DNA of 64,000 nucleotides, from NCBI GenBank assembly GCA_963767925.1, contig CAVYGB010000001.1, positions 32,001 to 96,000 of the forward strand, given 5' to 3'. Positions 45,897 to 61,560 of this stretch are shown here, one piece after another. This stretch comes from an uncultured delta proteobacterium. GTDB lineage: Bacteria; Myxococcota_A; Polyangia; Fen-1088. The notes under the pieces were generated by a model. The model did no database searches. It was not told the DNA's origin and worked only from the letters and a program-made list of their open reading frames with translations. The translations under genes were made by a program, and so were the position numbers. The stretch's first letter is position 1; each line of letters starts with the position of its first letter.

Positions 45897-47726
45897 TCAG
45901 CGTCGGGTCAGGAAGGACTTCTGCCGCACGACCTCGAGCAGCAGCCGTTTGATGTCGAAGCCGCTCTCCTGAAACAGGGTCTGCAGGCGGCGGATGGCGC
46001 AGGAGTCGCGGCCCCCGTCCTCGCCGCCCCGGGCGTAGCGGAACATCTGCCGGGCGAAGCAGGCCTGGGCGTTGGGGCTGGCCGCCAGCAGCCGGGCCAG
46101 GTCGGCCGGGCCATCGAAGGGCGTGCTCGCGTCCGACTCGAGGCTCTCCATGCCGACCACGTCGCCGCTCTCGTCGATCGCCTCACCCGCCTCGATGGTG
46201 CGGTAGGCGGCCACCCCGTCGTAGCGCTCGAACCCGAAGCCGACGGGGTCGATGAACTTGTGGCAGGCCTTGCACACGTCCTCGCTGGAGTGGCGGGCGA
46301 AGCGGGCCCGGGTGGTCAGCCGGGGGTCGAGCCCGGGCGGCATGATGTTGAGGTTCTCGGGCGGGGGGGGCAAGGTCTGGCACAGCAGGCGGGCGCGCAC
46401 GAACACCCCCCGGCGCACCGGCGACGACTCGTTGGCGTGGGCGTACATGCCGAGGACGCTCCCCAGCAGCAGCAGGCCGCCGCGCGTCCCGGCCTGGGGC
46501 GTGGTGCGCCCGGGGATCTGCACGGGGGTGGCGCCGCCGCCGGCCAGCCCGTAAAAGCGGGCCAGGGGCTGGCTGGCGAAGGTGTAGTCGGCGGTGAAGA
46601 GCTCGCCGAGCTTGCCGGTGCCGTTGTAGACCACGTGGCTGACGAAGGCGTCCTGCTCGTCGACCATCGCCCGGCGGACGGCGTCGTCGAAGGTGGGGTA
46701 GACGGCGGCGTCCTTGTTGGTGAAGAGGAAGCCGTCGGTCCCCAGCCACTGCCGGAAGAAGGCCACCATGCCCGGCCGGCTGCGGCGGTCCTCGATCAGG
46801 CGGCGGGCGGCCGCCTCGAAGCCAGCCGGCTGGGCCAGCGCCCCCGAGCGGGCCGCCTCCATGAGCGGGTCGTCGGGGGTGGTGCCCCAGAGGAAAAACG
46901 ACAGCGCGGTGGCGATCTCGTAGCCGCTGAGCCGGAAGGTGCCGTCGGCGGCCCGGTCCCCCATCTCCGAGCGGTAGAGGAAGTAGGGCGAGCTGAGCAT
47001 GGTGCGGATGACCAGCTCCATGCCCTTGTCGAAGGAGCCGCCGGTGTTGGCCGGCGAGAACAGGGTCAGGTAGCGGGTGACCTCGTCGGGGGCCAGGGGG
47101 CGGCGGAAGGCCCGCTGGCCGAAGTTCTGGATGAAGGTGCGGTCGCAGCCGGCCGCCGGGGCGCAGGGGGCCAGGCGGACCTTGCTGGCGCCGAGGGCCT
47201 GGGTGGCCAGCCGCTCCGAGGTGGAGAGGAACTCGTCGAGGTGGCGGTTGGTGACCACCGCCGCACCGGCGTTGTTGTCGAAGCCGTCGACGACCGACTC
47301 GACCGGGAGGTTGTCGACCGAGGGGCGGGTGATGAACAGCAGGTCGGTCACCGCGCTGGCGTATTCGCCGCGGGTCAACAGGCGCAGGCGCCGCGGCCCC
47401 GGCTCCTCCTCGCTCTGGCAGGCGGGGACCGCGCCGGGGGTGGCGGGGGCGGCGGCCGGCGGGGGCGTGCCGACCGGTCCACCGGGGAGGCCGCCGGGGG
47501 TGCCGGGGCCCGGGCTGCCGGGTGCGCCCACGCCGGGCGCGCCGGGAGCACCCACGCCGGGGCTGCCGGGGCTCCCCACGCCGGGGCTGCCGGGGCTCCC
47601 CACGCCGGGGGCGCCGGGCGCCGCCGGGGGGACTTCTCCCTGGATCGCGCCGGTACAGGCCAGCGCGAGCAGGGCGGGCAGGGCCAGCGGTAACCAGGTG
47701 GGGCGGTTGCGGTGCGGCTGCGTCAT
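45897..47726 (-). CDS. DUF1592/DUF1588-type lipoprotein with CxxCH
   Basis: LRLLTRGEY, RAFRRP, LSSPYFLYRSE, LSFFLWGTTPD, SSPVRRG, CKACH..IDPVGFGFE; Gly-Pro repeat linker. Confidence 0.88.
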   Translation of the reverse strand: MTQPHRNRPTWLPLALPALLALACTGAIQGEVPPAAPGAPGVGSPGSPGVGSPGSPGVGAPGAPGVGAPGSPGPGTPGGLPGGPVGTPPPAAAPATPGAVPACQSEEEPGPRRLRLLTRGEYASAVTDLLFITRPSVDNLPVESVVDGFDNNAGAAVVTNRHLDEFLSTSERLATQALGASKVRLAPCAPAAGCDRTFIQNFGQRAFRRPLAPDEVTRYLTLFSPANTGGSFDKGMELVIRTMLSSPYFLYRSEMGDRAADGTFRLSGYEIATALSFFLWGTTPDDPLMEAARSGALAQPAGFEAAARRLIEDRRSRPGMVAFFRQWLGTDGFLFTNKDAAVYPTFDDAVRRAMVDEQDAFVSHVVYNGTGKLGELFTADYTFASQPLARFYGLAGGGATPVQIPGRTTPQAGTRGGLLLLGSVLGMYAHANESSPVRRGVFVRARLLCQTLPPPPENLNIMPPGLDPRLTTRARFARHSSEDVCKACHKFIDPVGFGFERYDGVAAYRTIEAGEAIDESGDVVGMESLESDASTPFDGPADLARLLAASPNAQACFARQMFRYARGGEDGGRDSCAIRRLQTLFQESGFDIKRLLLEVVRQKSFLTRR

Positions 47727-47838
47727 CACCGGGGGTGATCCTCCTTTGCATAGGAGACCATCGGGCCCCTTCCCCCAGCCCTCCGAACCGCTCAAGACAC
47801 GGTCCCATTTCGTTCAGGCGGGTAGGCGCACCTGTTCT

Positions 47839-47890
47839 GGTCGGGCCCGAGCGAAGCGAGGGAACCCGACCACTTCGAAAAACAGTCCCT
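47839..47890. repeat. Extended REP-like family B element
   Basis: GGTCGGGCCCGAGCGAAGCGAGGGAACCCGACCACTTCGAAAAACAGTCCCT, abutting the next element. Confidence 0.85.
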
Positions 47891-48053
47891 AGTCCCCTGG
47901 AAAGGTGAAGTCTTGCATATGTCGGCGAGGCATCTTCGTTCCTGGCAAGGCGCGAGGAGGGCGAATACCGGGCGTATTTAACCGACGAGCAACGCAGCCA
48001 GGGACGAAGAGGACCGCCGAGATATGCAAGAAATCACCGTTCCAGGGGACTAG
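47889..48053. mobile_element. 165-bp CTAG-bounded rod-hairpin element (MITE-like or structured RNA)
   Basis: About 57-bp imperfect inverted arms CTAGTCCCCTGGAA...TTCCAGGGGACTAG; 50-nt core related to 61454-61503. Confidence 0.8.
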
Positions 48054-49687
48054 GCGATGTCGGGGTGGGCGGCGGCGAGGCGCTGGCCGTAGCCCCGTTG
48101 CTCCTGGAGGATCTCTTCCAGGATCTCCCGCGTGGTCAGCGGGTTGGCCAGCACCACGCGGAACACCGTCACGACCTGGCCGGCGTGGGCCGCCGCCTCG
48201 AGCCGGGTGCGGGAGACGAAGGTCTTGCCGTTGGCGCGCTGCTCGCGCTGGATCGACTCGGTCAGCGCGCTGAGGCTCTCGTTGGCCGATCGGCGCTGCT
48301 CGGGCGCGCCCTGCGCCGAAGATGGCCCGCGCCGCCCGGCGGGACGTAGCGGTAGGTCAGCAGGTTGAGCTCTGGCGCGGTGACCAGCTCGAAGTCGGGC
48401 GCGGCGGTGATCATCGCCGCGAACTGGCGGGCCATGTCGATGCCCAGGTCGATCAGCAGCTCGTAGCCCCGCCTGCCGATGATGCGCAGGGCGGAGTGCA
48501 CCAGCATGGCCATGCCCGAGCGGGTGCCCTCGAGGGTGTGCTTGCCGATGTCGCGCGAGCCCTGGCGGATGACGTAGTTGGCGTGGTGCTCGACCGAGGC
48601 CAGCGCCTGCACGTCCTTGAACAGCACCATGCCCGCGCCCACCGGCACGTAGAGCTGCTTGTGGGCGTCGATGGTCACCGAGTCGGCCCGCTCGATGCCC
48701 GGCCAGCAGCTGCCGGTGCTGCCGCGAGAACAGGGTGGGGCCCGCCCCAGGCGGCGTCGACGTGGAAGTGGGCCCCGCACTCGGCGGCCACGTCGGCCAG
48801 GGCGTCGAGCGGATCGACGTTGCCGGTCTCGGTGGTGCCGGCGATGCCCACGATGGCCAGCACGCCCAGCCGCCGCGCTCGCAGGCGGGCGATCTCGCGC
48901 GCGCAGGGCGGGGAGGTCGATCTTGTGGCGGGCGTCGATCGGGATGGGCACCAGGTTGCGGTGGCCCAGGCCCAGCAGGTCGGCGGCCTTGCCGAGCGAG
49001 TAGTGCCCGCGCCGCGAGACCAGCACGGCCAGGCCGTCGAGGCCGTGCGTGGCGCAGGGCCGCGGGCAGCCCCTCCTCCGCCACCCCGGCGAAGCCGCCG
49101 CCCGGGCCCAGCCGCCGGTTGCGCGCTACCCACAGGGCGGTGATGTTGGCCACCGTGCCGCCCGAGCAGAACACCCCCAGCGAGTGCACGAAGCTCTGGG
49201 TCCACTGGGCGTAGATAGGCGTCGCTCTGCTGGTAGATCAGGCGGTGCAACATGCCGACCACCTGGCGCTCGAGCGGCGTGAAGGCCTTGCGAGGTCTCG
49301 ATCTTCACGACGTTCTGGTTGAGCGTCATCATGATCTTGGCGAGCGGGAACATGAAGTAGGGCAGGGCCGAGGTCATGTGACCGATGAAGCTGGGCGAGG
49401 AGGTGCGCACCGACTGGGCCACGAGCTTGTTCAGCAGAAACTCGACCTGCTCGGACACGAACAGCGGATCCTCGGGGATCTGGCGTGTCGAGGAAGTCCT
49501 GCTCGAGGTTGGCGGGGGCGACGTCGCCGGCCACGATGCGCGAGCCGAGGAAGCCGAGCAGGTTGTCGGAGATCTCCCGGTCCAGCCGGCTGAGCGTCGA
49601 TTGATCGCTCTCCGGCAGGGTGAAGATCTTGTGCATCGTCTCGAGGGTGGCCTCGGCCTTCTTGCCGGGCGGGGGACTATCGGGCAC
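48050..49687 (-). pseudogene. panP: PLP-dependent decarboxylase, PanP-like; at least 7 apparent frameshifts (may be sequence errors in an intact gene)
   Basis: Pieces across frames: [88 protein letters not shown]. Confidence 0.75.
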
Positions 49688-50222
49688 TCAGGATCTCCTC
49701 GAGGGCGGCGGCGTCGAGCTCGGGCGAGGCCAGGCGCAGGCGATCGCCCAGCGCCGCCAGATCGGACAGCGCGAAGTAGGGGGAGGCGCAGGGGACGTGG
49801 TGGATGAAGCCGAAGGGGGCGAAGAAGCCGTTGTCCTCGAAGTTGCTGAGCCGCAGCCGCCAGGCGCCGGCGGCGATCAGCTCCTTGCAGTGCCGGCAGC
49901 GGGCCCGGCCCGAGCTGGCCCGCTCGGCCCCCGCCAGGCGCTGCAGGCGGGTGTGGGCCACCCCCTGGTCGGCCTCGGCCAGCAGGCGGTCGGCGTCGGG
50001 CAGGGCGGCGGCCGCCTCGGGCTGGCGCAGCAGGGCGGCCAGCTTCTCGGGGCGGCGGTGGGCGGCGCAGCGTGGGTGGAACCAGTACACGCTGCCGCCG
50101 TCCCCGTCGCGGTAGGCGCTGGGCAGCTCCTCGCCGAATCGCAGGGAGCCCTTTTCGATCTTCGCGCCGCACGCGCGGCACTGGGCGCGGCCGCTGGCAG
50201 CCGCCTCGAGGCGGTCACTCAT
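49677..50222 (-). CDS. Protein with two PARP-type zinc fingers
   Basis: EAAASGRAQCRAC..KI.KG.LR...WFHPRC and ERASSGRARCRHC...HVPC. Confidence 0.82.
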   Translation of the reverse strand: MSDRLEAAASGRAQCRACGAKIEKGSLRFGEELPSAYRDGDGGSVYWFHPRCAAHRRPEKLAALLRQPEAAAALPDADRLLAEADQGVAHTRLQRLAGAERASSGRARCRHCKELIAAGAWRLRLSNFEDNGFFAPFGFIHHVPCASPYFALSDLAALGDRLRLASPELDAAALEEILSAR

Positions 50223-50308
50223 GAAAGTTTCGAGCTCCTGATCGGTATCTTTGCCCACCTGACACGCCTTTGCCACCGAGAGCGCCTGGCGGGTGATAAA
50301 ATAGCGGC

Positions 50309-51116
50309 GTGCAAGCCTCCCGCGACGGTGGCCCACCCCGGGCCAAGGACGCCTACCGGGACTACGGCGCCGCGGTCCGCCCCGGCGTGGCCGAGTTCTA
50401 TCGGGCCAACCACACCCACCAGACGCTGGACTTCGTCCGCCAGAAGATCGAGCAATACGCCCCCGGGAAACACGGGCGCATGGGGGTGTGGGAGGCGATG
50501 GAGTTGCTCGACACCCTGGTCGACGACAGCGATCCCGACACCCAGGTCTCGCAGCTCCAGCACCTGCTGCAGACCGCCGAGGCCATCCGCCGCGACGGCC
50601 ACCCCCGCTGGTTCGTGCTGACCGGGCTGGTGCACGACCTCGGCAAGATCCTCTGCCTGCACGGCGAGCCGCAGTGGGCGGCGGTGGGCGACACCTTCCC
50701 GGTGGGCTGCCGCTTCTCCGACAAGATCGTCTTTCCCGAATTCTTCGCCGACAACCCCGATGTGCCAGCGGCCCGAGCTGATGACCGACACCGGGATGTA
50801 CCAGGCCGGGCTGCGGCCTCGACGACGTGTTGCTGTCCTGGGGGCACGACGAGTTCATGTACCGGGTGGCCCGCCCCTACCTGCCCGCCGAGGGGCTGGC
50901 CATGATCCGCTACCACTCGTTTTACGCCTGCCACCGCGAGGGGGCCTACCGCGCGCTGATGACCGAGCACGATCACCAGACCATGGACTGGGTGCGGAGG
51001 TTCAACGCCTACGATCTCTACTCCAAGGGCGCGGCCGAGGTGCCGGTGGCGGCAGGTGAGGCCTTATTACGATGGACCTCATCGCGGAGTATTTCCCTGC
51101 CAAGCTCGACTGGTGA
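50309..51116 (+). CDS. Inositol oxygenase (MIOX) family protein, about 4 apparent frameshifts in the 3' half
   Basis: [65 protein letters not shown], ending YFPAKLDW. Start uncertain. Confidence 0.88.
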
Positions 51117-53050
51117 GGGCGGGGCGGGCCGGGGCGAGCAGTGGGCCCGGCGGGCCCAGACCCTGCTCGTGCTGGCCGCGCTGGTGGTGTTGCTGGGGAT
51201 CGCCTCCCCGCACTTCCTGCGCTCGGAGAACCTGCTCAACGTCGCCCAGCAGTCGGCCATCAACGCCATCCTCGGCATCGGGCTGACCTTCGTGATCATC
51301 TCGGCCGGGATCGACCTCTCGGTGGGGTCGGTGCTGGCGCTGGCCGGGCTGGTGCACCGCCGACCTGCTGGTGCGGGGGGTGCCCGCGCCGGTGGCGGCG
51401 GCGGCCGGGGTGGGGCTGGGCAGCGCCCTCGGCATGGTCAACGGCCTCGTCACCACTCTGGGGCGCATCCCGCCCTTCATCAGCACGCTCGGCATGATGC
51501 TGGTGGCCCGCAGCGCCGCCGCCGTGTACAGCGGATCGACCCCCATCAGCGGCCTGCCCGAGGGCTTCCGCCTGCTGTCGGGCAAGATCGCCGGCGTCCC
51601 GGTCTTCATCCTGGCGGTGGCGCTGCTGTACGGGCTGGCCCACTTCGTCCTCACCCGCACCAAGCTCGGCCGTTACGCCTACGCCATCGGCGGCAACGAG
51701 CAGGCCGCCTGGCTCAGCGGGGTGCGCACGGGGCACTACAAGGTCGCCCTCTACGCGCTGTCGGGGGGCTGCGCCGGCATCGCCGCCGTGTTGCTGACCG
51801 CCCGCCTCAACGCCGCTTCGCCCCTGGCCGGCGAGATGTACGAGCTGTACGCCATCGCCGCCGCCGTCATCGGCGGCACCAGCCTGATGGGCGGCGAGGG
51901 GCGGGTGCTGGGGACGCTGATCGGCGCCCTGGTCATGGCGGTGCTGCGCAACGGGCTCAACCTGCTCAACGTCCCCTCGTCGTGGGAGGGGGTGGTGGTG
52001 GGGGCGGTGCTGATCTCGGCGGTCATCGTCGACCGGGCCCGCCACCGGACGGGGCCGCCCGCCGGGGCCTCGCGCTGGCGGCGGCACCGGGCTCGCTTCG
52101 CGCTGGGGGCGCTGTTCGCGGGGTTGCTGGTGGTGGCCATCGCCCATCGGACCGGCCGCGGCGGCGACACGATCACGGTGGCCTTCGTGCCCAAGCAGAT
52201 CGGCAGCCCCTTCTGGGTCACCATGCGGGCGGGGGCGGAGGCGGAGGCCCGCCGCCTGGGGGTGCGCCTGCTGACCCTGGCCCCCGACCGCGAGACCGAC
52301 GTCGAGCGCCAGCACCAGATCATCGAGAACCTGATCGAGCAGGGGGTCGACGCGCTGGTGGTGGCGCCCGCGGGGGCCAAGGAGGTGGTGCCGGCGGTCA
52401 AGAAGGCCAACCGGGCCGGCATCCCGGTGCTCGTCGTCGACTCGGACATCCACCGGGCCACGGCCGCCGCGGCCGGCGCCGCCACGCTGACCTACATCGG
52501 CTCGGACAACGTCGCCGGCGGGCGGATGGCAGCCGAGGCGGTGGCGCGCTGGCTGGGCGAGCAGGGCGAGGTGGCGGTGCTGGAGGGGACGCCCGGGCAC
52601 GAGAGCACCGATCAGCGGCGCCAGGGCTTCACCGAGGCGCTGGCCCGGCACCCCGGGCTGCGGCTCGTGGCGGCCCAGACCGCCTCGGCCGAGCGGGCGC
52701 GCGGCTTCACGGTGGCCCAGAACATCCTGCAGGCCCACCCCGGGCTGGGCGCCATCTTCGGAGCCAACGACGAGATGGCCCTCGGCGCCCTCGAGGCGGT
52801 GGCCGCCGCCGGCCGGAGCGACCGGGTGAAGGTGGTCGGCTTCGACGCCTCCCCCGACGCCGTCAGCAACATCCGCGCCGGGCGCATGGCCGGGTCGGTG
52901 GCCCAGTTCCCGAGCGAGATGGGGCGCCTGGGCGTGCTGGCGGCCTACGACCTGGTGGTGGGCCGCAAGCAGCCCGCCCAGGTGCTGCACACGAAGGTCG
53001 AATTGATCGACGCCGCGAACGTGGAAAGCTTCGCCGCGAGCCTGAAGTGA
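51113..53050 (+). CDS. Ribose-type sugar ABC permease fused to a substrate-binding domain (frameshift near 51356; start uncertain)
   Basis: [35 protein letters not shown], then in frame [21 protein letters not shown]. Confidence 0.85.
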
Positions 53051-53057
53051 GCGCCAC

Positions 53058-54548
53058 ATGACGGGGGAGGGCAGGCGCGAGCCGCGGGTGGCGATGTGGG
53101 GCATCGAGAAGAGCTTCCCGGGCGTGCGCGCCTTGCGGGGGGTCAGCCTGTCGGTGCAGCCGGGGGAGGTGCACGTGCTGCTCGGGGAGAACGGGGCCGG
53201 CAAGTCGACGCTGATGAAGGTCCTCACCGGCCAGATCGCGCCCGACGCGGGCCACATGGAGCTGGACGGCGGCCCCTACCAGCCGGCCTCGCCGCTGGCC
53301 GCGCAGCGGGCGGGGATCGCCATGATCCACCAGGAGCTGAGCATCATCCCGGCCCTCACGGTGGGCGAGAACATCCTGCTGGGCGACGAGCCGGCGCGGG
53401 CCGGCGTGATCGATGGGCGGGCGCAGCAGCGGCGGGCCCGGGCCCTGCTGGCCGAGGTAACCTCCGACCTGCACCCTGACACCCCCGCCGCCGCGCTGTC
53501 GGTGGCGCAGCGCCAGGTGGTGGAGATCGCCAAGGCGCTCCGGCACGAGGCGCGGGTGCTGGTGATGGACGAGCCGACGGCGGCGCTGTCGGACGGGGAG
53601 ACCGCCCGGCTGTTCCAGGTCATCCGCGGGCTGACCGCCCGGGGAGTGTCCGTGTTGTACATCTCCCACCGCATGCCGGAGATCTTCAGCCTCGGCGATC
53701 GGGTCACCGTCCTGCGCGACGGCGCCACCATCGAGACGGTGGCGGTGGCGGGCACCTCGGTCGCCGCCCTCATCGCCGCCATGGTGGGCCGCCCGGTCGG
53801 CGAGCGGGTCCCCAAGCGCCGGGTCGAGCCGGGGCCGGTCGCCTTGCAGGTCGAGGACCTGACCCGCGGCCCCATCGGGCCGGTGCGCTTCGAGGTGCGG
53901 GCGGGCGAGATCTTCGGCCTGGCCGGGCTGATGGGCTCGGGCCGCACCGAGGTGGCGCGGGCCATCTTCGGGGCCGACCCGCCGAGCGGCGGCCTGGTGC
54001 GGGTGGCGGGCCGCCAGCTCGCCGGGACGGTGGGCGACGCCATCGACGCGGGGGTGGGCTTCGTGACCGAGGACCGCAAGGGTCAGGGGCTGTTGCTCGA
54101 GGGCTCGGCCGCCGCCAACCTCACCCTCGCCACCTTGCAGGGCCTGTGTCGGGCCGGGGTGATCGATCTGCCCCGCGAGGCGTCGGTGGCCGAGGACCTG
54201 CGCGCGCGCCTAACCATTCGCCTGGCCTCGGTGCACCAGCTCGCCCGCACCCTGTCGGGCGGCAATCAGCAGAAGGTGATCATCGGGCGCTGGCTGGCGG
54301 CCCGCTGCCGTGTCCTGATCCTCGACGAGCCGACCCGGGGGGTGGACGTGGGGGCCAAGGCGGAGATCTACGAGCTGATCGGGGACCTGGCGCAAAAGGG
54401 GGTGGCCCTGCTGCTGATCTCGAGCGACCTGCCGGAGGTGCTGGGGCTGGCCGATCGGATCGGCGTCATGCGGGCGGGGCGGCTGGCCGGCGTGCTCGCC
54501 GCGGGCGAGGCCTCGTCCGAGCGGGTCATGTCGCTGGCGGTGGGCTGA
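53058..54548 (+). CDS. Sugar ABC transporter ATP-binding protein (RbsA-like)
   Basis: [37 protein letters not shown]. Confidence 0.93.
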
Positions 54549-54623
54549 GCGCCGGTCGAACCGGTCGCCACCGACGGGAGACGGGTTCAGCCGGGGCGCC
54601 CTCCTTCCGATGAGCGGGGGGAC

Positions 54624-55142
54624 ATGCCCGTACTTCCGGCCCTGCGCCTGCGACGTGACGAGGTCTGGTGCCTGAGCTGGCGCAACTGCACCCTCACCCT
54701 CTGGCAACGCGTGACGGTCGAGGGGCTGCAGGCGGTGCACGAGGTGACCCAGCAGCTCCGGGGATCGTTTCCGCAAGGTCTGGTGACGGTTTCTTGCATG
54801 TTGCCGGGAGCGCCGGTGTTGCCGTCGTCCGAGGCGCGGACCGAGTCGCTGCGGCTGATGAACGAGACCCGCGGGGTGGTGAAGGCCTCGGCGGCGGTGT
54901 TCGAGGGGACCGGGCTGGTGCTCGCCACGGCGCGCGTCTTCATCTCGGCGCTGATGGTCGCGGCCACGCGCTCGCACCACACCTTCAAGGTCTTCGCGAC
55001 GCTCGAGAAGGTTCCCTACTGGATCGCCCCCTACATGGAGAAAAATCCCAGTCCCCAGCTCATGAGCGAGCTCGGCGAGGCGCTCACGCGCGGGCGGGCC
55101 ATGCGCCGGGCGGTCGCGCAGGTCGGCCAGCCTGCGCGCTGA
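54624..55142 (+). CDS. Hypothetical protein (possibly STAS/SEC14-like)
   Basis: Good codon bias; PSSEAR...SAAVFEGTG...KVF pattern. Confidence 0.6.
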   Translation: MPVLPALRLRRDEVWCLSWRNCTLTLWQRVTVEGLQAVHEVTQQLRGSFPQGLVTVSCMLPGAPVLPSSEARTESLRLMNETRGVVKASAAVFEGTGLVLATARVFISALMVAATRSHHTFKVFATLEKVPYWIAPYMEKNPSPQLMSELGEALTRGRAMRRAVAQVGQPAR

Positions 55143-55174
55143 GCCAGCCCTTCTCTCTCGAAATCGTCAAATGA

Positions 55175-55882
55175 TTGGCGCAAACTAGGGAGACTGTGGC
55201 GGCCGGAGAGTCTTTCCTGGCGACGCAGGTCGCCTTCCTGGTCATCAGCGGTGTATCCGCGGCGGTCCTCGCCGGCGGCGCGGTCTGGACGGTGATTCGC
55301 TCTGCCCGTGCGGCGCTGGCCTACGGGCGGACCGTGCTGCGGCCGCGGCTGATCGGCCGCTGGGTGTCCCGCAAGTTCAGGGCCATCCCGCGGGTCTCGG
55401 GGCGGCCCGCCCTGCCGGTGGGGACGCTGGTGCGGCTACGCGGCCGCGTCGAGGCCGAGTCGATTCACCGGGCCGAGTTCAGCGGCCTGGCCAGCGTGGT
55501 CTGCCGTCACGAGTTCGGCGAGGTCGGCGGCGGCGGCGCGGGCGATGGCTTCTCGGTGCGCGACTTCCTGCTGCGGCTGGAAGACGGCCATGGGGTGCGG
55601 GTGCGCGCGCAGGACGCGGCGGCTCGGCGGGTGCTGGCGCTGGTCGACCAGCAGCCGCAGCGGTGGAACGGGTCGGGCAGCGGCGATGGGTGGTTCTGGG
55701 AGTCGCGGCTGGGGCCCGGGGATGAGCTGGAGGTGATCGGGCGGCTGCAGCAGGAGCTGGACGCGACGATCGCGCGCATCAGCGATCGGCAGCCGGCGCT
55801 GGGGTGGACGGTGGCGGCGGGGCAGGAGGGGTTGTTTCTGTGTTTTGCTACGCGGCCTGGGTTGGCGGCGGCGTCCTCGTAA
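55175..55882 (+). CDS. Hypothetical membrane-anchored protein (GIDE-like domain)
   Basis: N-terminal TM, LVRLRGRV, DFLLRLEDG, ESRLGPGDELEVIG. Start uncertain. Confidence 0.55.
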   Translation: MAQTRETVAAGESFLATQVAFLVISGVSAAVLAGGAVWTVIRSARAALAYGRTVLRPRLIGRWVSRKFRAIPRVSGRPALPVGTLVRLRGRVEAESIHRAEFSGLASVVCRHEFGEVGGGGAGDGFSVRDFLLRLEDGHGVRVRAQDAAARRVLALVDQQPQRWNGSGSGDGWFWESRLGPGDELEVIGRLQQELDATIARISDRQPALGWTVAAGQEGLFLCFATRPGLAAASS

Positions 55883-56034
55883 GGCACGCGTTCCCGGGAA
55901 CGGGGACGGATACGAGGACAGGACGGACGCCGGGGGCTTAGAGCGAGCCGCAGAAACCTGTGAATTACGCATGAGACGCAGCGTTGAAGGCAATCAGGGC
56001 GCAGGCGAGGTGAACGAAAATCACTGCCGCGGCT

Positions 56035-56211
56035 GTCGAGGTCGAGGTCGTGGTCGTGGTCGTGGTCGAGCGCGAGTTCGAGTTCGTGTGTGGTGCGCGT
56101 GTCTCGGCTCGCCGGCCTCGGCTCGCGTAATTCCGCGCACGAGAACCGCGAACCGCTAGCCGCTCGCCTCACACGAACTCGAACTCGAACACGCGCTCGC
56201 ACACGACCACG
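56035..56211. repeat. Inverted hexamer tracts (GTCGAG/GTCGTG/GAGTTC versus GAACTC)
   Basis: 18-bp perfect inverted repeat at 56073-56090 and 56170-56187, between convergent genes. Confidence 0.8.
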
Positions 56212-56277
56212 CGTACCGATCTCCGTATCTCACGTCCTAGGCTATGACAGATTTCCACAGGTTTCTGCGGCTCGCTC

Positions 56278-56718
56278 TTAGCCGCCGGGGCCGTCGGCCA
56301 TGATGTAGCCCTGCAGGTCATCGACCTTGACCTCCAGTGAGCCAAGCAGGGCGTACAGCAGGTAGCGGAGCGCCACGAGGCCCAGCAGGTCGCCGTCCTC
56401 GTCGACGACCGCGAGGTGGCGAATGTGCTCGGCCTGCATGATGCCGGCGGCGTCGGCCACGGTGGCGTGCATGGAGATGGTCTGGACGGGGAAGGTCATC
56501 ACCTCGCCCACCGAGACGCGATCCGGATCGCGGCCGGGCCAGACGACGCGGACCATGAGGTCGCGCTCGGTGAAGATCCCGACGATCTTGCGGCCCTCCG
56601 TGATGGCCACCGCGCCGACTTCGCCCTCGACCATCATGCGGACGACGGAGCGGACCGAGGCCGCGGGTGGCGCCTCCGGCCGGGCGTGAACGAGATGAAG
56701 CAATTCGCTTTCCAGCAT
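56278..56718 (-). CDS. CBS domain-containing protein
   Basis: VGAVAI, VGIFTERDL, VGEVMT, HIRHLAVVD. Confidence 0.9.
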   Translation of the reverse strand: MLESELLHLVHARPEAPPAASVRSVVRMMVEGEVGAVAITEGRKIVGIFTERDLMVRVVWPGRDPDRVSVGEVMTFPVQTISMHATVADAAGIMQAEHIRHLAVVDEDGDLLGLVALRYLLYALLGSLEVKVDDLQGYIMADGPGG

Positions 56719-56748
56719 TGGGTGCCCCTGGGCTGCATGCAGGGAGCT

Positions 56749-56763
56749 ACAACGACCGTGCCA
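56749..56763 (-). promoter_or_regulatory. Sigma54-like promoter
   Basis: Minus strand TGGCAC-GGTCG-TTGT about 30 nt upstream of the CBS gene ATG. Confidence 0.5.
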
Positions 56764-57022
56764 CTGCCTGGTCTCGGGCCTTTCCGCGACTTTCTTCCCG
56801 GCGCGCGGCGGGGTGGTCCGGAGCTCGGTAGCGTTTCTGGTGGCGACCGTCACGAACTCTGCACGCCCCGGTTTCGGCGGGCGGACGGTTCAATCGTCTC
56901 GCTCATCGTGTCGCCGTTTGTCGCGCTGTCCGGGGGGTGTGGTGGTCTTGTACAAGTCGGCGATGGGACATAACTTCTCAACGATCCGGACCGGATTCAC
57001 GAAGACGTAGCGAGGCTGTTTC

Positions 57023-57481
57023 ATGAAAGACCACACGCCGACCCCGTTGCCTCTCAAGCGAACCAGCGAATACGCCCCGGTGGCGTATCGGCCGGACCGA
57101 CCGATGGTGCTCGTCGTCGACGACGACTGGGCGATCTGTGACGCGGTCAAGGAGACGCTCGAGGACGCTGGCTTCGACGCGACCTGCGTCGAGAACGGGG
57201 AGGTCGCGCTCCAGCACCTGTCGCGCGAGCCGGCGCCCTCGGCGATCCTCCTCGATCTGTTCATGCCGGTCATGGACGGCTGGACCTTCGCCGACCGCCT
57301 GCGGGCCAACCCCGGGCTGAACCAGATCCCCGTCATCGTGATGACCGCCTCGGGACCCCACTGGGGGTACCCGGCGGCCCGGGTGTTGCACAAGCCGATC
57401 TACGGCAACGAGCTGGTGGCGGCCGTGCAGAAGGCGATCGAGGCGGGCCAGGCCGGCGGCGGGGCGAGCGCGAGCCTCTGA
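57023..57481 (+). CDS. Single-domain response regulator
   Basis: VLVVDDD, LLDLFMPVMDG, MTA, LHKP. Confidence 0.88.
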   Translation: MKDHTPTPLPLKRTSEYAPVAYRPDRPMVLVVDDDWAICDAVKETLEDAGFDATCVENGEVALQHLSREPAPSAILLDLFMPVMDGWTFADRLRANPGLNQIPVIVMTASGPHWGYPAARVLHKPIYGNELVAAVQKAIEAGQAGGGASASL

Positions 57482-57531
57482 GCGCGGGCCAGACCCATCT
57501 TCGAGACCGAGACAAACCAGGGAGGTGCACG

Positions 57532-58047
57532 ATGGCCGAGGGCACGGGACGACGGCGAGGCACGGACAGCGACCTGCAGGGCGACATCGAAGACGAGATG
57601 CTGGCCTCCGGTCGCACCCACTACCAGCCGCGAGAAGGGCTGTCGGGCGCGCACGCTCAGCGCCGCCAGGGCCTCGGCGCCGACCCCGAGCAGGGTGAGC
57701 GCGAGCCGGGCAGCGGCGGCACCCACGTGGCACCCACCCGCAAGGCAGAGATGCGCGAAGCCACGCGGCACCGCCTGGAGCACCAGGTGGGCCACCTGGC
57801 CGCCGGCGAGGCCGAGGGGGTCGTGCGCCAGTACCGCAGCCGCTTCGCCACCCGCGAGGCGCTCGACGGGATCGCGGCCGAGGCCGACGAACTGATGGCC
57901 AGGCTCCGCCTCACCGCCGAGGGCCGGGCTCTGCCCTGGAGCCGCCGCGCCGGCGACTGGCTCTGGCAACACCGCATCGCCGTGGCCGTCGGCCTGGGCG
58001 CTGCCCTCCTCACCACCGGCTGCGTGGCCCTCGCCCGCCGCCGCTGA
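57532..58047 (+). CDS. Hypothetical protein with C-terminal membrane anchor
   Basis: GGAGGT RBS; tail WQHRIAVAVGLGAALLTTGCVALARRR. Confidence 0.7.
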   Translation: MAEGTGRRRGTDSDLQGDIEDEMLASGRTHYQPREGLSGAHAQRRQGLGADPEQGEREPGSGGTHVAPTRKAEMREATRHRLEHQVGHLAAGEAEGVVRQYRSRFATREALDGIAAEADELMARLRLTAEGRALPWSRRAGDWLWQHRIAVAVGLGAALLTTGCVALARRR

Positions 58048-58055
58048 GACCCCGG

Positions 58056-58220
58056 CCCCCTCACCCCACCCTCTCCCCGCTGCGCGGGGCGAGGCGAACG
58101 GGCAGCGGGGAGCGAAGATTCTCGAGAAGACCCACGGAGCCGGCCTGCGAGGATGAAGGGGGACCTCGCTGATTGTTCGCCCTCGCCCCGCGGCAGCGGG
58201 GAGAGGGGGGCGTCAGGGGT
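58056..58220. repeat. Inverted pair of REP-like family A elements between convergent genes
   Basis: 58056-58110 reverse copy and about 58174-58220 forward copy. Confidence 0.8.
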
Positions 58221-58247
58221 CTGAGCGGGGTCGTGCAAAGCCGCCTT

Positions 58248-58970
58248 TCAGGCGGCGTCGTGGAAGATGAGGCCGAGGGTGAGGCGGTGGCCGCTGCGCA
58301 GGACGCTGACCCCGTGGCGCATGGGTGCGGTCGACCACCCGCGGGCGGAGCGCAGGGGGCGGTCCCGGGTGGTGAAGACGATGGCGTGGCCCTGGGGCAG
58401 GGGGGCGGTGGTGCCGCGGGACTGGGCGCGGGGGCGTTGCTCCACCACCAGGAACTCGCCGCCGGTGTAGTCCACCTCCGGGCGGTCGAGCCCGATCACC
58501 ACTTGTAGAGGGAAGACCAGGTCGCCGTAGAGGTCGCGGTGCAGGGCGTTCCAGTCGCCGGGGCCGTAGCGGAGCAGGAGCGGGGTGGGGCGGCTCTGAC
58601 CGGCCTGCGCGCATTGGCGCAGCCAGGCCTCCAGCTTGTCGGGCCAGGGCTGCGGCCGGCCCAGGCGCGCGGCCCAGTCCCGGGCGATCGGCAGCAGGTG
58701 CGGCCAGAAGGCCGCCCGGAGCTGCGTGACGAGCCGGGGCAACGGCCGATCGAAGTAGCGGTATTGCCCCTGGCCGAAGCGGTGGCGGGCCATGTCCACG
58801 GTGGCGCGGAAGCGGCGCTCGTCGTCGTACAGCTCGTGCAGCGCCCGGCAGTCGCCCGGCGTGAGCACCGGTCCGGCGGTGCTGGCGCAGCCCAGCTCGT
58901 CCAGGTCGGCCTGGATGCGGGCCCAGGGGAGCGCGTCGACCCTCCGGCGGGAGGACAGTTGTGTCGGCAC
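58248..58970 (-). CDS. 2OG-Fe(II) oxygenase (DUF2086-like)
   Basis: RPTPLLLRY, LHRDLYG, YTGGEF, EQRPRAQSR, MRHGVS, LGLIFHDA. Confidence 0.88.
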   Translation of the reverse strand: MPTQLSSRRRVDALPWARIQADLDELGCASTAGPVLTPGDCRALHELYDDERRFRATVDMARHRFGQGQYRYFDRPLPRLVTQLRAAFWPHLLPIARDWAARLGRPQPWPDKLEAWLRQCAQAGQSRPTPLLLRYGPGDWNALHRDLYGDLVFPLQVVIGLDRPEVDYTGGEFLVVEQRPRAQSRGTTAPLPQGHAIVFTTRDRPLRSARGWSTAPMRHGVSVLRSGHRLTLGLIFHDAA

Positions 58971-59122
58971 CGGCCCAGCATAGCGAACCGACGAAGCGCT
59001 ACCGCGATCTGTTCATCGGCAAGGGGGCCGATCCGGGCCCCGACCTGCCCTGGGTGGCGGGGCAGGTCGGCGGCACGTCGATCTACCCGAGCCTGTTGCG
59101 CCTCCCCGCTGGCCTTCCCCAT

Positions 59123-59228
59123 TCGCTTCCGCTTCCGCTTCCGCTTCCGCTTCCGCTTCCTCTTCCTCTTCCTCTTCCTCTTCCTGCTTCCGCTTCCGCT
59201 TCCGCTTCCTCTTCCGCTTCCTCTTTCC
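59123..59228. repeat. Pyrimidine-rich hexamer tract (TTCCGC/TTCCTC)n
   Basis: About 17 hexamer units directly visible. Confidence 0.95.
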
Positions 59229-59247
59229 TGAGGGGAGGGTGGGAGCG

Positions 59248-60045
59248 TCAGCCGGCGAGGCGGGTGAGGTCGAGCGTGGCCCAGGCGGGGGCGTGGTCGC
59301 TGGCGTCGGGCAGGTCCCGGACCCAGTCGTGCACGCCGGTGGTCAGCAGCGCGGGGGTGATCGACGGGCTGAGCAGCAGGTGGTCGAGGCGCAGGCCGGC
59401 GTTGCGGGCCCGGTGTTGCCGGAGATACGACCAGAAGGTGTAGACGCTCTCGTCGGGGTGCTGGGCGCGGAGGGCGTCGAGCCAGCCCTGCTCGAGCAGG
59501 CGCTGGTAGGCGGCGCGGCTCTCGGGCTGCAGCAGGGCGTTCTTGCGCCAGGACTTCGGGTTGTAGATGTCGAAGTCGGTGGGGACGACGTTGTAGTCGC
59601 CGGCGAGCACCACCGGGTGGCCGCTGCCGAGGAGGGCGGCGGCGTGGGCCAGCAGCCGCTCGAACCAGGCGAGCTTGTAGCTGAACTTGGGGCCGGGCCA
59701 GGGGTTGCCGTTGGGCAGGTACAGGCAGGCGACGAGGACCCCGTTGACGGCAGCCTCCAGGTAGCGGCACTGGCGATCGGCGGGGTCGCCGGGCAGCTCG
59801 CGCCGGGTCTCGACCGGGGTGCTGCCGCGGGCCAGGATGGCGACGCCGTTCCAGGAGCTCTCGCCGTGGAAGCGCGCCCCGTAGCCGGCGGCCCGGAGGG
59901 CGGCGACGGGGAAGCGGGTGTCGACGACCTTCGTCTCCTGCAGACAGACCACGTCGGGCGCCTCGTCGGCCAGCCAGCGCAGGAGCTGGGGCAGGCGGCG
60001 CTCGATGTTGTTGATGTTGAAGGTGGCCAGGGTGAGGGGAGGCAT
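59248..60045 (-). CDS. xth: Exodeoxyribonuclease III
   Basis: ATFNIN, VCLQETK, NGVAIL, YLPNG, GDYN, YTFW, RLDH, SDHAP. Confidence 0.93.
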   Translation of the reverse strand: MPPLTLATFNINNIERRLPQLLRWLADEAPDVVCLQETKVVDTRFPVAALRAAGYGARFHGESSWNGVAILARGSTPVETRRELPGDPADRQCRYLEAAVNGVLVACLYLPNGNPWPGPKFSYKLAWFERLLAHAAALLGSGHPVVLAGDYNVVPTDFDIYNPKSWRKNALLQPESRAAYQRLLEQGWLDALRAQHPDESVYTFWSYLRQHRARNAGLRLDHLLLSPSITPALLTTGVHDWVRDLPDASDHAPAWATLDLTRLAG

Positions 60046-60141
60046 CGCCGCGCGGGGCTTGTGACAGTTCTGTGCATGGCGGGAACCGGCTCGGGTTCGG
60101 GCCTGCGACCCGCGTATATATCAACCGAACGGGAGGGACGC

Positions 60142-60350
60142 CTGACCCAGGCCTCGACCGACGACGAGGGGCTCGTGTGCGCCTTCGGGCTCGCGCCGGC
60201 CGTGCGCCGCGCCGAGCAGGCGTTGCCGCGCGACCCGGAGGGGCCGCCGATGTGGTGCAAGAGGAGCTCGGCGCCGGCCTCACCGAGGTCACCAACCGCA
60301 ACCTGCTCGTCCTGTCGATCGTGACGACGATCCTGCTGGTGAAACAGGGC
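60142..60350 (+). pseudogene. Collapsed CorA/ZntB-family transporter remnant
   Basis: GGGAGG RBS and CTG, then DDEGLVCAF...PPMW joined out of frame to VQEELGAGLTEVTNRNLLVLSIVTTILL. Confidence 0.55.
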
Positions 60351-60395
60351 CGGGCCTCATGGCCGGGGGCAGGGCGAAGGCCCAGGGTGGGGGGC

Positions 60396-61400
60396 ATGAA
60401 CCGACGCGAATTCGTGGGGATCCTGGCGGCCGGGGCGGCGGGGGGGGCGGGCAGCGCCTGGCCGGAGTCGGCGGGGGCGGCGCCCGGGGCGATCGCGAAG
60501 CGGCGCCTGGGGCGCACCGGTGTCGAGGTCTCGATGCTGGGCCTGGGCGGCCACCACATCGGCCGGCCCAAGGAGGAGCAGGAGGGCATCCGCCTGGTGC
60601 AGATGGCGATCGACAACGGCATCACCTTCCTCGACAACTGCTGGGACTACAACGAGGGGCGCAGCGAGGCCTGGATGGGCAAGGCCCTGCGCGGGGCCTA
60701 CCGCAAGCAGGCCTTCCTCATGACCAAGCTCGACGGGCGGACGAAGAAGTCGGCGGCCGAGCAGCTCGACCAGAGCCTGCGCCGGCTGCAGACCGAGATG
60801 ATCGATCTGGTGCAGATCCACGAGGTCATCCGGGGTGAAGACGTCACCCGGTCGTTCGAGGCGGGCGGGGCGATGGAAGCCCTGTTCGAGGCGCGCAAGG
60901 CCGGCAAGCTGAAGTACATCGGGTTCACCGGGCACAAGGATCCGAAGTTCCACCTGGCGATGATCGAGGCCGGGCTGAAGGCCGGGTTCACCTTCGATGC
61001 CGTCCAGATGCCCCTCAACGTGATGGACGCCCACTACCGCAGCTTCGAGAAGGAGGTGCTGCCGGTGTGCCAGAAACACGACATCGGCGTGCTGGGCATG
61101 AAGCCGATGGGCGACGGGGTGGTCCTGGAGAGCAAGGTTGTCGACGCCCGGGAGTGCTTGCGCTACGCCCTCAGCCTGCCCATCGCGGTGGTCATCACCG
61201 GCTGCGAGAAGGTCCCCATCCTCCAGCAGGCCATCGACGTCGGCAAGACCTTCAAGCCGCTCGGCGAGGCGGAGCGGAAGGCGCTGCTGGCGCGCACGGC
61301 GCCCCTGGCGGTGGCGGGGAAGTTCGAGCCGTTCAAGAACACCAGCCGCTTCGACGGGACCGCCCAGAACCCGCACTGGCTGGAGACGGCCCGGCTCTAG
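60396..61400 (+). CDS. Aldo/keto reductase with Tat signal
   Basis: MNRREF, RRLGRTG, FLDNCWDY, FLMTK, DLVQIH, IGFTGH, LGMKP. Confidence 0.92.
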   Translation: MNRREFVGILAAGAAGGAGSAWPESAGAAPGAIAKRRLGRTGVEVSMLGLGGHHIGRPKEEQEGIRLVQMAIDNGITFLDNCWDYNEGRSEAWMGKALRGAYRKQAFLMTKLDGRTKKSAAEQLDQSLRRLQTEMIDLVQIHEVIRGEDVTRSFEAGGAMEALFEARKAGKLKYIGFTGHKDPKFHLAMIEAGLKAGFTFDAVQMPLNVMDAHYRSFEKEVLPVCQKHDIGVLGMKPMGDGVVLESKVVDARECLRYALSLPIAVVITGCEKVPILQQAIDVGKTFKPLGEAERKALLARTAPLAVAGKFEPFKNTSRFDGTAQNPHWLETARL

Positions 61401-61560
61401 TGCACCGCTCGCGAAATATCGTCAAGGATCCGCCGACAAGCCTGCGGCCCCGCGAGGCGCGACGACGACGAATATCCGGCATATTCCGAGGAGGAGCAAC
61501 GAAGCGGGGGCGCAGGATCGTCGGCGGAGCCTTGACGATATTTCGCGAGCGGTGCACTAG
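61397..61560. mobile_element. 164-bp CTAG-bounded rod-hairpin element (MITE-like or structured RNA)
   Basis: 31-bp perfect terminal inverted repeat extending imperfectly to 57 bp; 50-nt core related to 47947-47996. Confidence 0.85.

Follow-up and report, generated by a model that had tools for sequence, protein, structure and literature searches.

An uncatalogued family of MITE-like hairpin elements with a conserved apical core in a Myxococcota_A genome and in other bacterial phyla

[quoted passage not shown] The family is present in many copies in this genome, has been active there recently, lies among unrelated genes and has a patchy distribution that extends over many phyla. E1 and E2 probably represent two subfamilies of an old, horizontally spread group of hairpin MITEs of about 165 bp, moved in trans by a DDE transposase of the IS5 superfamily, with an apical core that may act in cis.

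The two hairpins and their copies in one genome

E1 occupies positions 47889 to 48053 of the window (165 bp) and E2 positions 61397 to 61560 (164 bp), both flanking CTAGs being counted in and the core sense of both lying on the plus strand. The two hairpins had been noticed earlier from the sequence of the window (hereafter the original prediction), and their coordinates, CTAG ends and arms were as described there when the sequence was re-read. In each element the arms are complementary from the first base past CTAG and are thus terminal inverted repeats. As predicted, the arms of E1 and E2 are dissimilar, with no alignment past CTAGT. The calculated RNA folds are very stable, at -111.2 kcal/mol for E1 (z -13.5) and -125.1 kcal/mol for E2 (z -14.1), and for neither element was any of 200 shuffled sequences as stable. 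In their short length and their non-coding character both agree with what is required of a MITE.

The assembly that holds the window (9.34 Mb in 13 contigs, 71% G+C, 83.8% complete) contains 68 copies of the core according to an nhmmer core profile and 67 according to a covariance model built later. Sorted by left arm, 38 of the 68 copies are of the E1 type (subfamily A), 19 are of the E2 type (subfamily B), five are B-like (B'), four make up subfamily C and two are of other types. Many copies are 97-100% identical to one another, and E1 has an exact twin on another contig (C8:1607146-1607310). There are nine pairs of abutting elements, one junction tetranucleotide being common to both members of a pair. 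The copies are dispersed, and relatives differ in their presence or absence: a genome of the same genus has one match to the core pattern described below, compared with the 67-68 copies here. The suggestion of a non-autonomous mobile element, made when two copies were known, is borne out by this copy number, by the copies that are 100% identical, by the tandem insertions and by the patchy spread across phyla.

CTAG is found at both ends of 42 of the 68 copies, at one end of 24 and at neither end of two. Because the decayed ends, as read, are mostly CTGG or CCAG, CTAG appears to erode by A:T to G:C transitions at its centre. It is 11-fold under-represented in the genome, which has 2140 sites compared with 24,547 expected from base composition. 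Twenty-eight of the 68 copies start exactly at the stop codon of a neighbouring open reading frame (ORF). A usable site is often a C followed by the TAG of a stop codon, and insertion would regenerate it; an element that seeks CTAG and regenerates its site would explain both the placement at stop codons and the tandem arrays.

Within the window, the left CTAG of E2 (61397-61400) provides the TAG stop of an aldo/keto reductase gene (60072-61400; Pfam PF00248, 118.9 bits). The right CTAG of E1 (48050-48053) provides, by its complement, the TAG stop of a minus-strand PanP-like ORF, the last 70 residues of which match positions 450-520 of the PanP model TIGR03799. The original prediction that CTAG serves as the stop of the adjoining gene thus applies to these two ends, and does not extend to the left end of E1, which adjoins a small repeat and no gene.

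This small repeat, of about 55 bp (approximately 47838-47892), also has CTAG ends, the left one reading CTGG at this locus. It holds a GCGAAGC run flanked by GA/GA, which would give a mini-hairpin with tandem G.A pairs. About 20 further sites in the genome carry the repeat, of which the word CTAGTCGGGCCCGA occurs 20 times and the word CTAGGGACTGTTTT 9 times, and it flanks several other hairpin elements there. In the 5' part of the minus-strand ORF left of E1 (window positions 47560-47620), a unit of about 24 nt (ggggctgccggggctccccacgcc) is directly repeated. To the right of E1, the PanP-like ORF (48053-49189, minus strand) matches the PanP model at its two ends only, with 148 bits compared with a cut-off of 606, and its middle gives a low-complexity translation rich in Arg and Pro. 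The restriction of the match to the ends, together with this low-complexity middle, suggests a frameshifted gene or an assembly error.

The apical core and the strand that folds

The apical core of E1 (47947-47996, plus strand) consists of tandem G.A pairs parted by covarying G-C or C-G pairs, with an internal GC/AA loop and an apical stem-loop that varies. That of E2 (61454-61503, plus strand) has three tandem G.A pairs, with a single C-G pair between each. A position-by-position recount of the two 50-nt cores gave 36 identities without gaps, the figure first reported, and the compensatory differences between E1 and E2 were likewise recovered: G-C versus C-G at positions 10/40 and 13/37, C-G versus T-A at 22/28, and G-T versus G-C at 17/33. 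The GA/GA tandems at 8-9/41-42 and 11-12/38-39 are invariant between the two cores, as had been claimed. All copies have such an apical module of about 50 nt, in which the helix is broken by two or three tandem G.A pairs and the GC/AA loop.

The covariation proposed from two copies proved to be strong in larger alignments. Among 115 unique cores, the first G/C pair between the tandem G.A pairs (S1-S3) is C-G in 69, G-C in 44 and G-G in 2, so that 113 of the 115 are Watson-Crick pairs, and the second is G-C in 64, C-G in 43, G-T in 4 and unpaired in 4. In an alignment of 94 distinct sequences, 82.5% of the cells are paired; shuffling lowers this to 59% and sliding of the partners to 26-45%, and the covariation score is 0.551 compared with 0.177. 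The invariance of the GGCGCGA and GAGCAACG blocks is imposed by the search pattern and so cannot be counted as evidence. Variation of the core is visible from diverged second cores (described below), one of which, in an Elusimicrobia metagenome-assembled genome (MAG; G044), has GA/GA, another tandem purine pair, in place of the GC/AA loop.

The same core is found on three architectures. The monomer form, to which E1 and E2 belong, has unrelated arms among the phyla and a near-constant length: of 86 measured, 22 are of 160-169 nt, 12 of 170-179 nt and 4 of 150-159 nt, the longer lengths representing local alignments that overrun into the flanks. The covariation and the monomer lengths of about 157-171 nt with unrelated arms uphold the earlier view that fold and length are kept while the arm sequence is free. 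A second form, of 270-300 bp, occurs in genomes of Nitrospirales, Verrucomicrobiae and Elusimicrobia and combines short terminal repeats with a core hairpin, the arms of which are of 27 nt, and with another core that is inverted and diverged. The third form, of 232 bp, from Betaproteobacteria and others, has ends (CTAG AAACGGCAGTTGG...) that are distinct from its 37-nt hairpin arms. In one Nitrospirales genome (G041; loci L069, L098 and L187) the two-core element lies inside a larger repeated unit, the ends of which (CCTAGAAACGGCAGTTGG) are those of the betaproteobacterial 232-bp element; the identical ends indicate a nested or composite repeat common to several phyla.

The occurrence of one core on unrelated backbones could be explained if the core hairpin were itself mobile, a parasite of other repeats that enters the loop of an existing hairpin or MITE and has its arms copied from adjacent sequence. 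Besides the three architectures, two 143-bp copies in Ottowia (L199 and L200; G192:C1:1684609-1684751 and 2675653-2675795) speak for this, as they lack exactly the core and one inverted copy of the arm, the backbone remaining as a simple 35-nt hairpin. They may be a core-less backbone; they may equally well be the product of a deletion between direct repeats in a palindromic hairpin. The 38 copies of subfamily A and the 19 of subfamily B have, at different loci, the same arms down to their fixed mismatches, from which it follows that arms and core move together, and no core was seen without a continuing stem. We therefore give little credence to a core that moves by itself, and treat arms and core as one MITE.

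Several other readings of the core were considered and dropped. A coding function, suggested by a translation rich in Asp and Glu, was ruled out because the core varies in length, being 43 to 53 nt in the unique-core set and not a multiple of three, and because subfamily C has a stop codon. Nor is the antisense frame of the 232-bp form coding: this frame, the only long open one seen, has variabilities of 0.75, 0.84 and 0.75 by codon position, with no excess at the third. By eye, a sigma-54 promoter has the wrong spacing, a k-turn would need a bulge adjoining the G.A pairs, which have none, and CsrA GGA motifs change sides with the G/C flips; the IHF site, boxA and attC R boxes, compared in the same manner, were also set aside.

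Mismatches in the arms differ between the two strands. They were counted outside the core, leaving out the 8 nt adjoining it, and read on the core-sense strand. In 39 elements from different phyla there are 131 G.T compared with 67 A.C mismatches (p 6e-6) and 136 G.A compared with 33 C.T (p 5e-16); in 22 elements of relatives the corresponding numbers are 44 and 17, and 97 and 20. A mutational strand bias cannot explain this asymmetry, because the elements are oriented at random relative both to genes and to GC skew. In this genome, 10 elements lie in the sense direction of the gene ending there and 18 in the antisense direction (p 0.18), elsewhere the count is 34:34 (among 97 non-redundant elements of other genomes), and agreement with the local GC skew (40 concordant, 28 discordant) is not significant. 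The covariation, together with the strand-biased G.T and G.A mismatches, shows that selection maintains the ability of the core-sense strand, be it DNA or RNA, to fold single-stranded over the full length of the rod.

Such a fold could also belong to a structured RNA that serves the host, lying after stop codons as a stabilizer of the 3' end, a terminator or a precursor of a small RNA, and multiplied because of its usefulness to the cell. This would agree with the very stable rod, with the covariation and the excess of G.U-type pairs, and with the 28 copies that start at a stop codon; the MITEs ERIC and Correia are moreover known to influence mRNA stability (PMC10969869). A host RNA would be expected neither to be indifferent to the orientation of the gene that ends at it nor to have unrelated neighbours. 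Among the 136 flanking ORFs there is one transposase, and the others that match Pfam have unrelated functions in metabolism, transport and translation. The near-identical copies, the tandem arrays, the patchy distribution in related genomes and the variable arms without a conserved promoter are further points against such an RNA. The lack of orientation bias and the unrelated neighbours are the behaviour of a MITE, and the structured RNA of the 3' untranslated region, which the original prediction had put forward as its second option, now appears improbable.

Distribution, target sites and candidate transposases

The two conserved halves of the core were written as an IUPAC pattern, with G or C free at three positions, and sought in related genomes and public collections. 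The pattern is present in 13 of 41 related genomes, this genome included, with 1-8 copies in each of the other carriers, and the reversed pattern has no match in the same 41. In a public collection with one genome per species, the core was found at 120 loci or more in over 10 phyla. The matches listed include Acidobacteriota, Verrucomicrobiota, Planctomycetota, Myxococcota, Gamma- and Betaproteobacteria, Nitrospirota, Elusimicrobia, Gemmatimonadota, Actinomycetota, Eremiobacterota and one Saccharibacteria MAG. In four of these genomes, which belong to three other phyla and include two Elusimicrobia, there are 37, 48, 5 and 18 copies. Across the phylum of the present genome, the covariance model matched in 43 of 151 sampled genomes, which represent 38 of 119 genera. 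Among plasmids there is one copy, unannotated, on a Caballeronia IncP plasmid, where it immediately follows a phospholipase D gene, and the pattern has no match in 2.9 million viral contigs.

The comparison with Rfam (4227 families) proposed with the original prediction gave no match at the gathering score for the whole window, and none for 12 loci from several phyla even at E<=1. No description of this element was found in literature searches, the coverage of which excluded subscription journals. A search for sequencing runs listed no RNA run and three DNA runs, each with 0.05 of the sampled words. The element marks hundreds of intergenic hairpins that are now left blank by annotation pipelines and RNA catalogues, and it explains the genes, frequent in such genomes, that end in TAG with a long hairpin directly after.

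Elements outside this genome that do not end in CTAG indicate how the family inserts. In 11 of 12 read by eye, an identical TNA triplet with a variable middle base stands on both sides, and the ends of these TNA-flanked elements begin with GAG or GG. Duplication of TNA is a mark of transposition by DDE enzymes of the IS5 superfamily (IS5, IS1031 and PIF-Harbinger), and the variable middle base of the triplets suggests that a DDE enzyme cuts duplex DNA in a staggered manner. The proposal that the element is recognized as a single-stranded hairpin is therefore only partly upheld: the strand-biased mismatches indicate that one strand is selected to fold, whereas the TNA duplications indicate cutting of the duplex, no enzyme that reads the hairpin was identified, and Y1/HUH genes do not track the element.

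The IS630-type domain DDE_3 (PF13358) has no match in this genome, which is 83.8% complete, and has matches in control genomes; the PIF-type domain DDE_Tnp_4 also has no match in this genome. DDE_Tnp_1 has 22 matches here and is present in seven of eight other core-rich genomes, for which reason it is not discriminating. The IS1182 family is represented by two CTAG-flanked insertion sequences (ISs), one scoring 302 bits (cut-off 270) in this genome and one scoring 375 bits in the Nitrospirales genome, and their ends partly resemble those of some subfamilies (GAACGCCGAACGGTTTGA compared with the end of L082, and GGAGCCTGTC compared with the end of L079).

This genome also has a CTAG-flanked IS of 1.42 kb (C8:638759-640177, L001, with three or four more copies), the ends of which are CTAGCCGGGATTAT. 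It encodes in addition a four-helix-bundle protein, which we take to be of the "23S rRNA intervening sequence protein" type. An end nearly identical to that of this IS adjoins a hairpin element in a Planctomycetota MAG (L120).

We propose that a DDE transposase of the IS5 superfamily, provided in trans, would move the elements, enzymes of the IS1182 family being the best candidate for the CTAG-flanked forms, and that the elements would insert into the TA of CTAG or into TNA. The weakest step of this scheme concerns the core, which may be a cis-acting requirement of the element's own spread and not a regulator of the adjoining host genes. It would be read single-stranded by a protein common to many phyla, either in fold-back DNA exposed at replication or in a read-through transcript.

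A number of observations weigh against movement by such a transposase. In this genome the flanks are the palindrome CTAG, in which a TA duplication, a CTAG duplication or none at all look alike, so that 2 bp and 4 bp are inseparable. No empty site was recovered from the same-genus genome (G001), where the loci are 70-86% identical and the genes end differently. The longer copies enclosing a transposase that the original prediction had led us to look for did not appear with the same ends in three genomes: there was no IS-sized pair of subfamily A or C ends in this genome (at 83.8% completeness), and no IS-sized element with the same ends in the Elusimicrobia MAG G044 or in the Ottowia genome (G192/G193), a single contig of 4.2 Mb. 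Co-occurrence of the core with IS1182 is that of chance, with 14 shared genomes compared with 13.1 expected among 151, on the assumption that the surveys for core and IS1182 drew the same 151-genome sample, and genomes with 11-22 copies have no IS1182 match. No core was found inside any of the IS or Y1 loci tested; in the single case of a core close to an IS (L189), the two are about 400 bp apart. Since the tested ISs have no core, a need of the transposase for the core is not evident.

The alternative of a Y1/HUH tyrosine transposase starts from the strand-specific folding. Here the element would be similar to a REPIN and would be moved as single-stranded DNA by an enzyme of the RAYT (tyrosine transposase associated with repetitive extragenic palindromes, REPs) or TIRYT type, which would recognize the conserved imperfect hairpin and cleave the rod at its base. 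Escherichia coli REPs need an AA/GC mismatch for cleavage by RAYT (PMC3733652), and the core has a GC/AA loop. This genome contains 11-15 copies of a divergent Y1 gene, three of which have an element no more than about 0.6 kb away, and genome G026 has one further pair of this kind. However, the TNA duplications with a variable middle base indicate the staggered cuts of a DDE enzyme, and the elements have no GTAG or CGTC tag. Co-occurrence of Y1 and core, at 20 shared genomes compared with 19.6 expected among the 151, is again that of chance; genomes with 11-22 copies have no Y1 match, and in several core-bearing relatives a search with this Y1 protein found nothing at E<=1e-10. The Y1 genes of this genome have long inverted repeats of their own, different from those of the elements, and the adjacency of the two can be regarded as a choice of target, because a CTAG lies 15 nt before the Y1 start codon. 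We consider movement by a Y1 enzyme unlikely, and it fares worse than movement by an IS1182-type transposase.

The Y1 genes themselves, which encode divergent proteins of 226-237 residues (C10:1014577-1015251, C2:814923-815594 and 9-13 more), score below the NCBIfam cut-offs for RAYT and IS200. Their long inverted repeats contain an internal palindrome, and they resemble the "TIRYT/TIRtron" type of PMC3733652.

Returning to the IS5-type MITE, a more far-reaching proposal can be made, to which we attach somewhat less than even weight. The apical module may be an undescribed motif common to many phyla, a helix in which two or three tandem sheared G.A pairs stand between covarying G-C pairs, together with a GC/AA (or GA/GA) loop. 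It would be read single-stranded by a widely shared protein, either a host factor or transposases of the IS1182/IS5 type, and would act as an obligatory "passport" in cis for a superfamily of MITEs with interchangeable ends. The two-core forms would then supply the motif on both strands.

Comparison with known elements

Among the bacterial MITEs that fold end to end are Correia/NEMIS, RUP and ERIC/YPAL (PMC3733652 and PMC10969869). The present family is similar to them in being short, non-coding and multi-copy, with terminal inverted repeats and a hairpin that comprises the whole element. It further resembles them in its use of a short palindromic or TA target, in its position next to genes and in its tandem or nested insertions. 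In Correia/NEMIS, RUP and ERIC/YPAL, however, the ends are conserved and match those of a parent IS, and each group is confined to one genus or family. In the present family the ends and arms vary, the apical module of about 50 nt is conserved over more than 10 phyla, and three genomes yielded no parent IS whose ends are the same. A RUP-type MITE, which is derived from IS630, differs in addition by its requirement for a DDE_3 transposase, a domain without a match in this genome.

The type II or Tourist-like MITEs of IS5 and PIF-Harbinger, which are flanked by TNA or TWA duplications, agree with the relatives' elements in the 3-bp TNA duplication and the GAG or GG ends, and CTAG-flanked IS1182-family elements with similar ends exist. 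They differ in that the presence of IS1182 does not track the present element, and mobilization by such enzymes is here something that we infer. To our knowledge, a constraint on strand-specific folding is not a known property of MITEs of the IS5/PIF-Harbinger type.

REPs and REPINs have in common with the present elements imperfect hairpins, conserved mismatches and one functional strand, and the 270-300-bp forms with two inverted cores are parallel to a REPIN with its two inverted REPs. A REP is a palindrome of 20-40 bp with a GTAG (or CGTC) tag at one end, according to PMC3733652; the present elements, in contrast, are CTAG-flanked rods of 165 bp with no GTAG-tagged unit in the copies. The conserved part is apical and not terminal, elements of relatives have target duplications, and an association with Y1 genes is lacking. 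REPs also co-vary with their own RAYT, whereas the present core is the same across phyla. With the structured RNAs of Rfam the element shares covarying helices that contain non-canonical pairs, and it differs from them in matching no family.

MITEs are normally defined by their ends, each being tied to one IS family in one lineage. In the elements described here this logic of conservation is inverted: a strand-specific structured centre has been kept over more than 10 phyla, while ends, arms and architecture change. This implies a further step in the life of these elements, for which a single strand in its folded state and a broadly conserved partner would be needed. To identify this partner would be to extend bacterial transposition by a new cis-element and perhaps also by a new mechanism.

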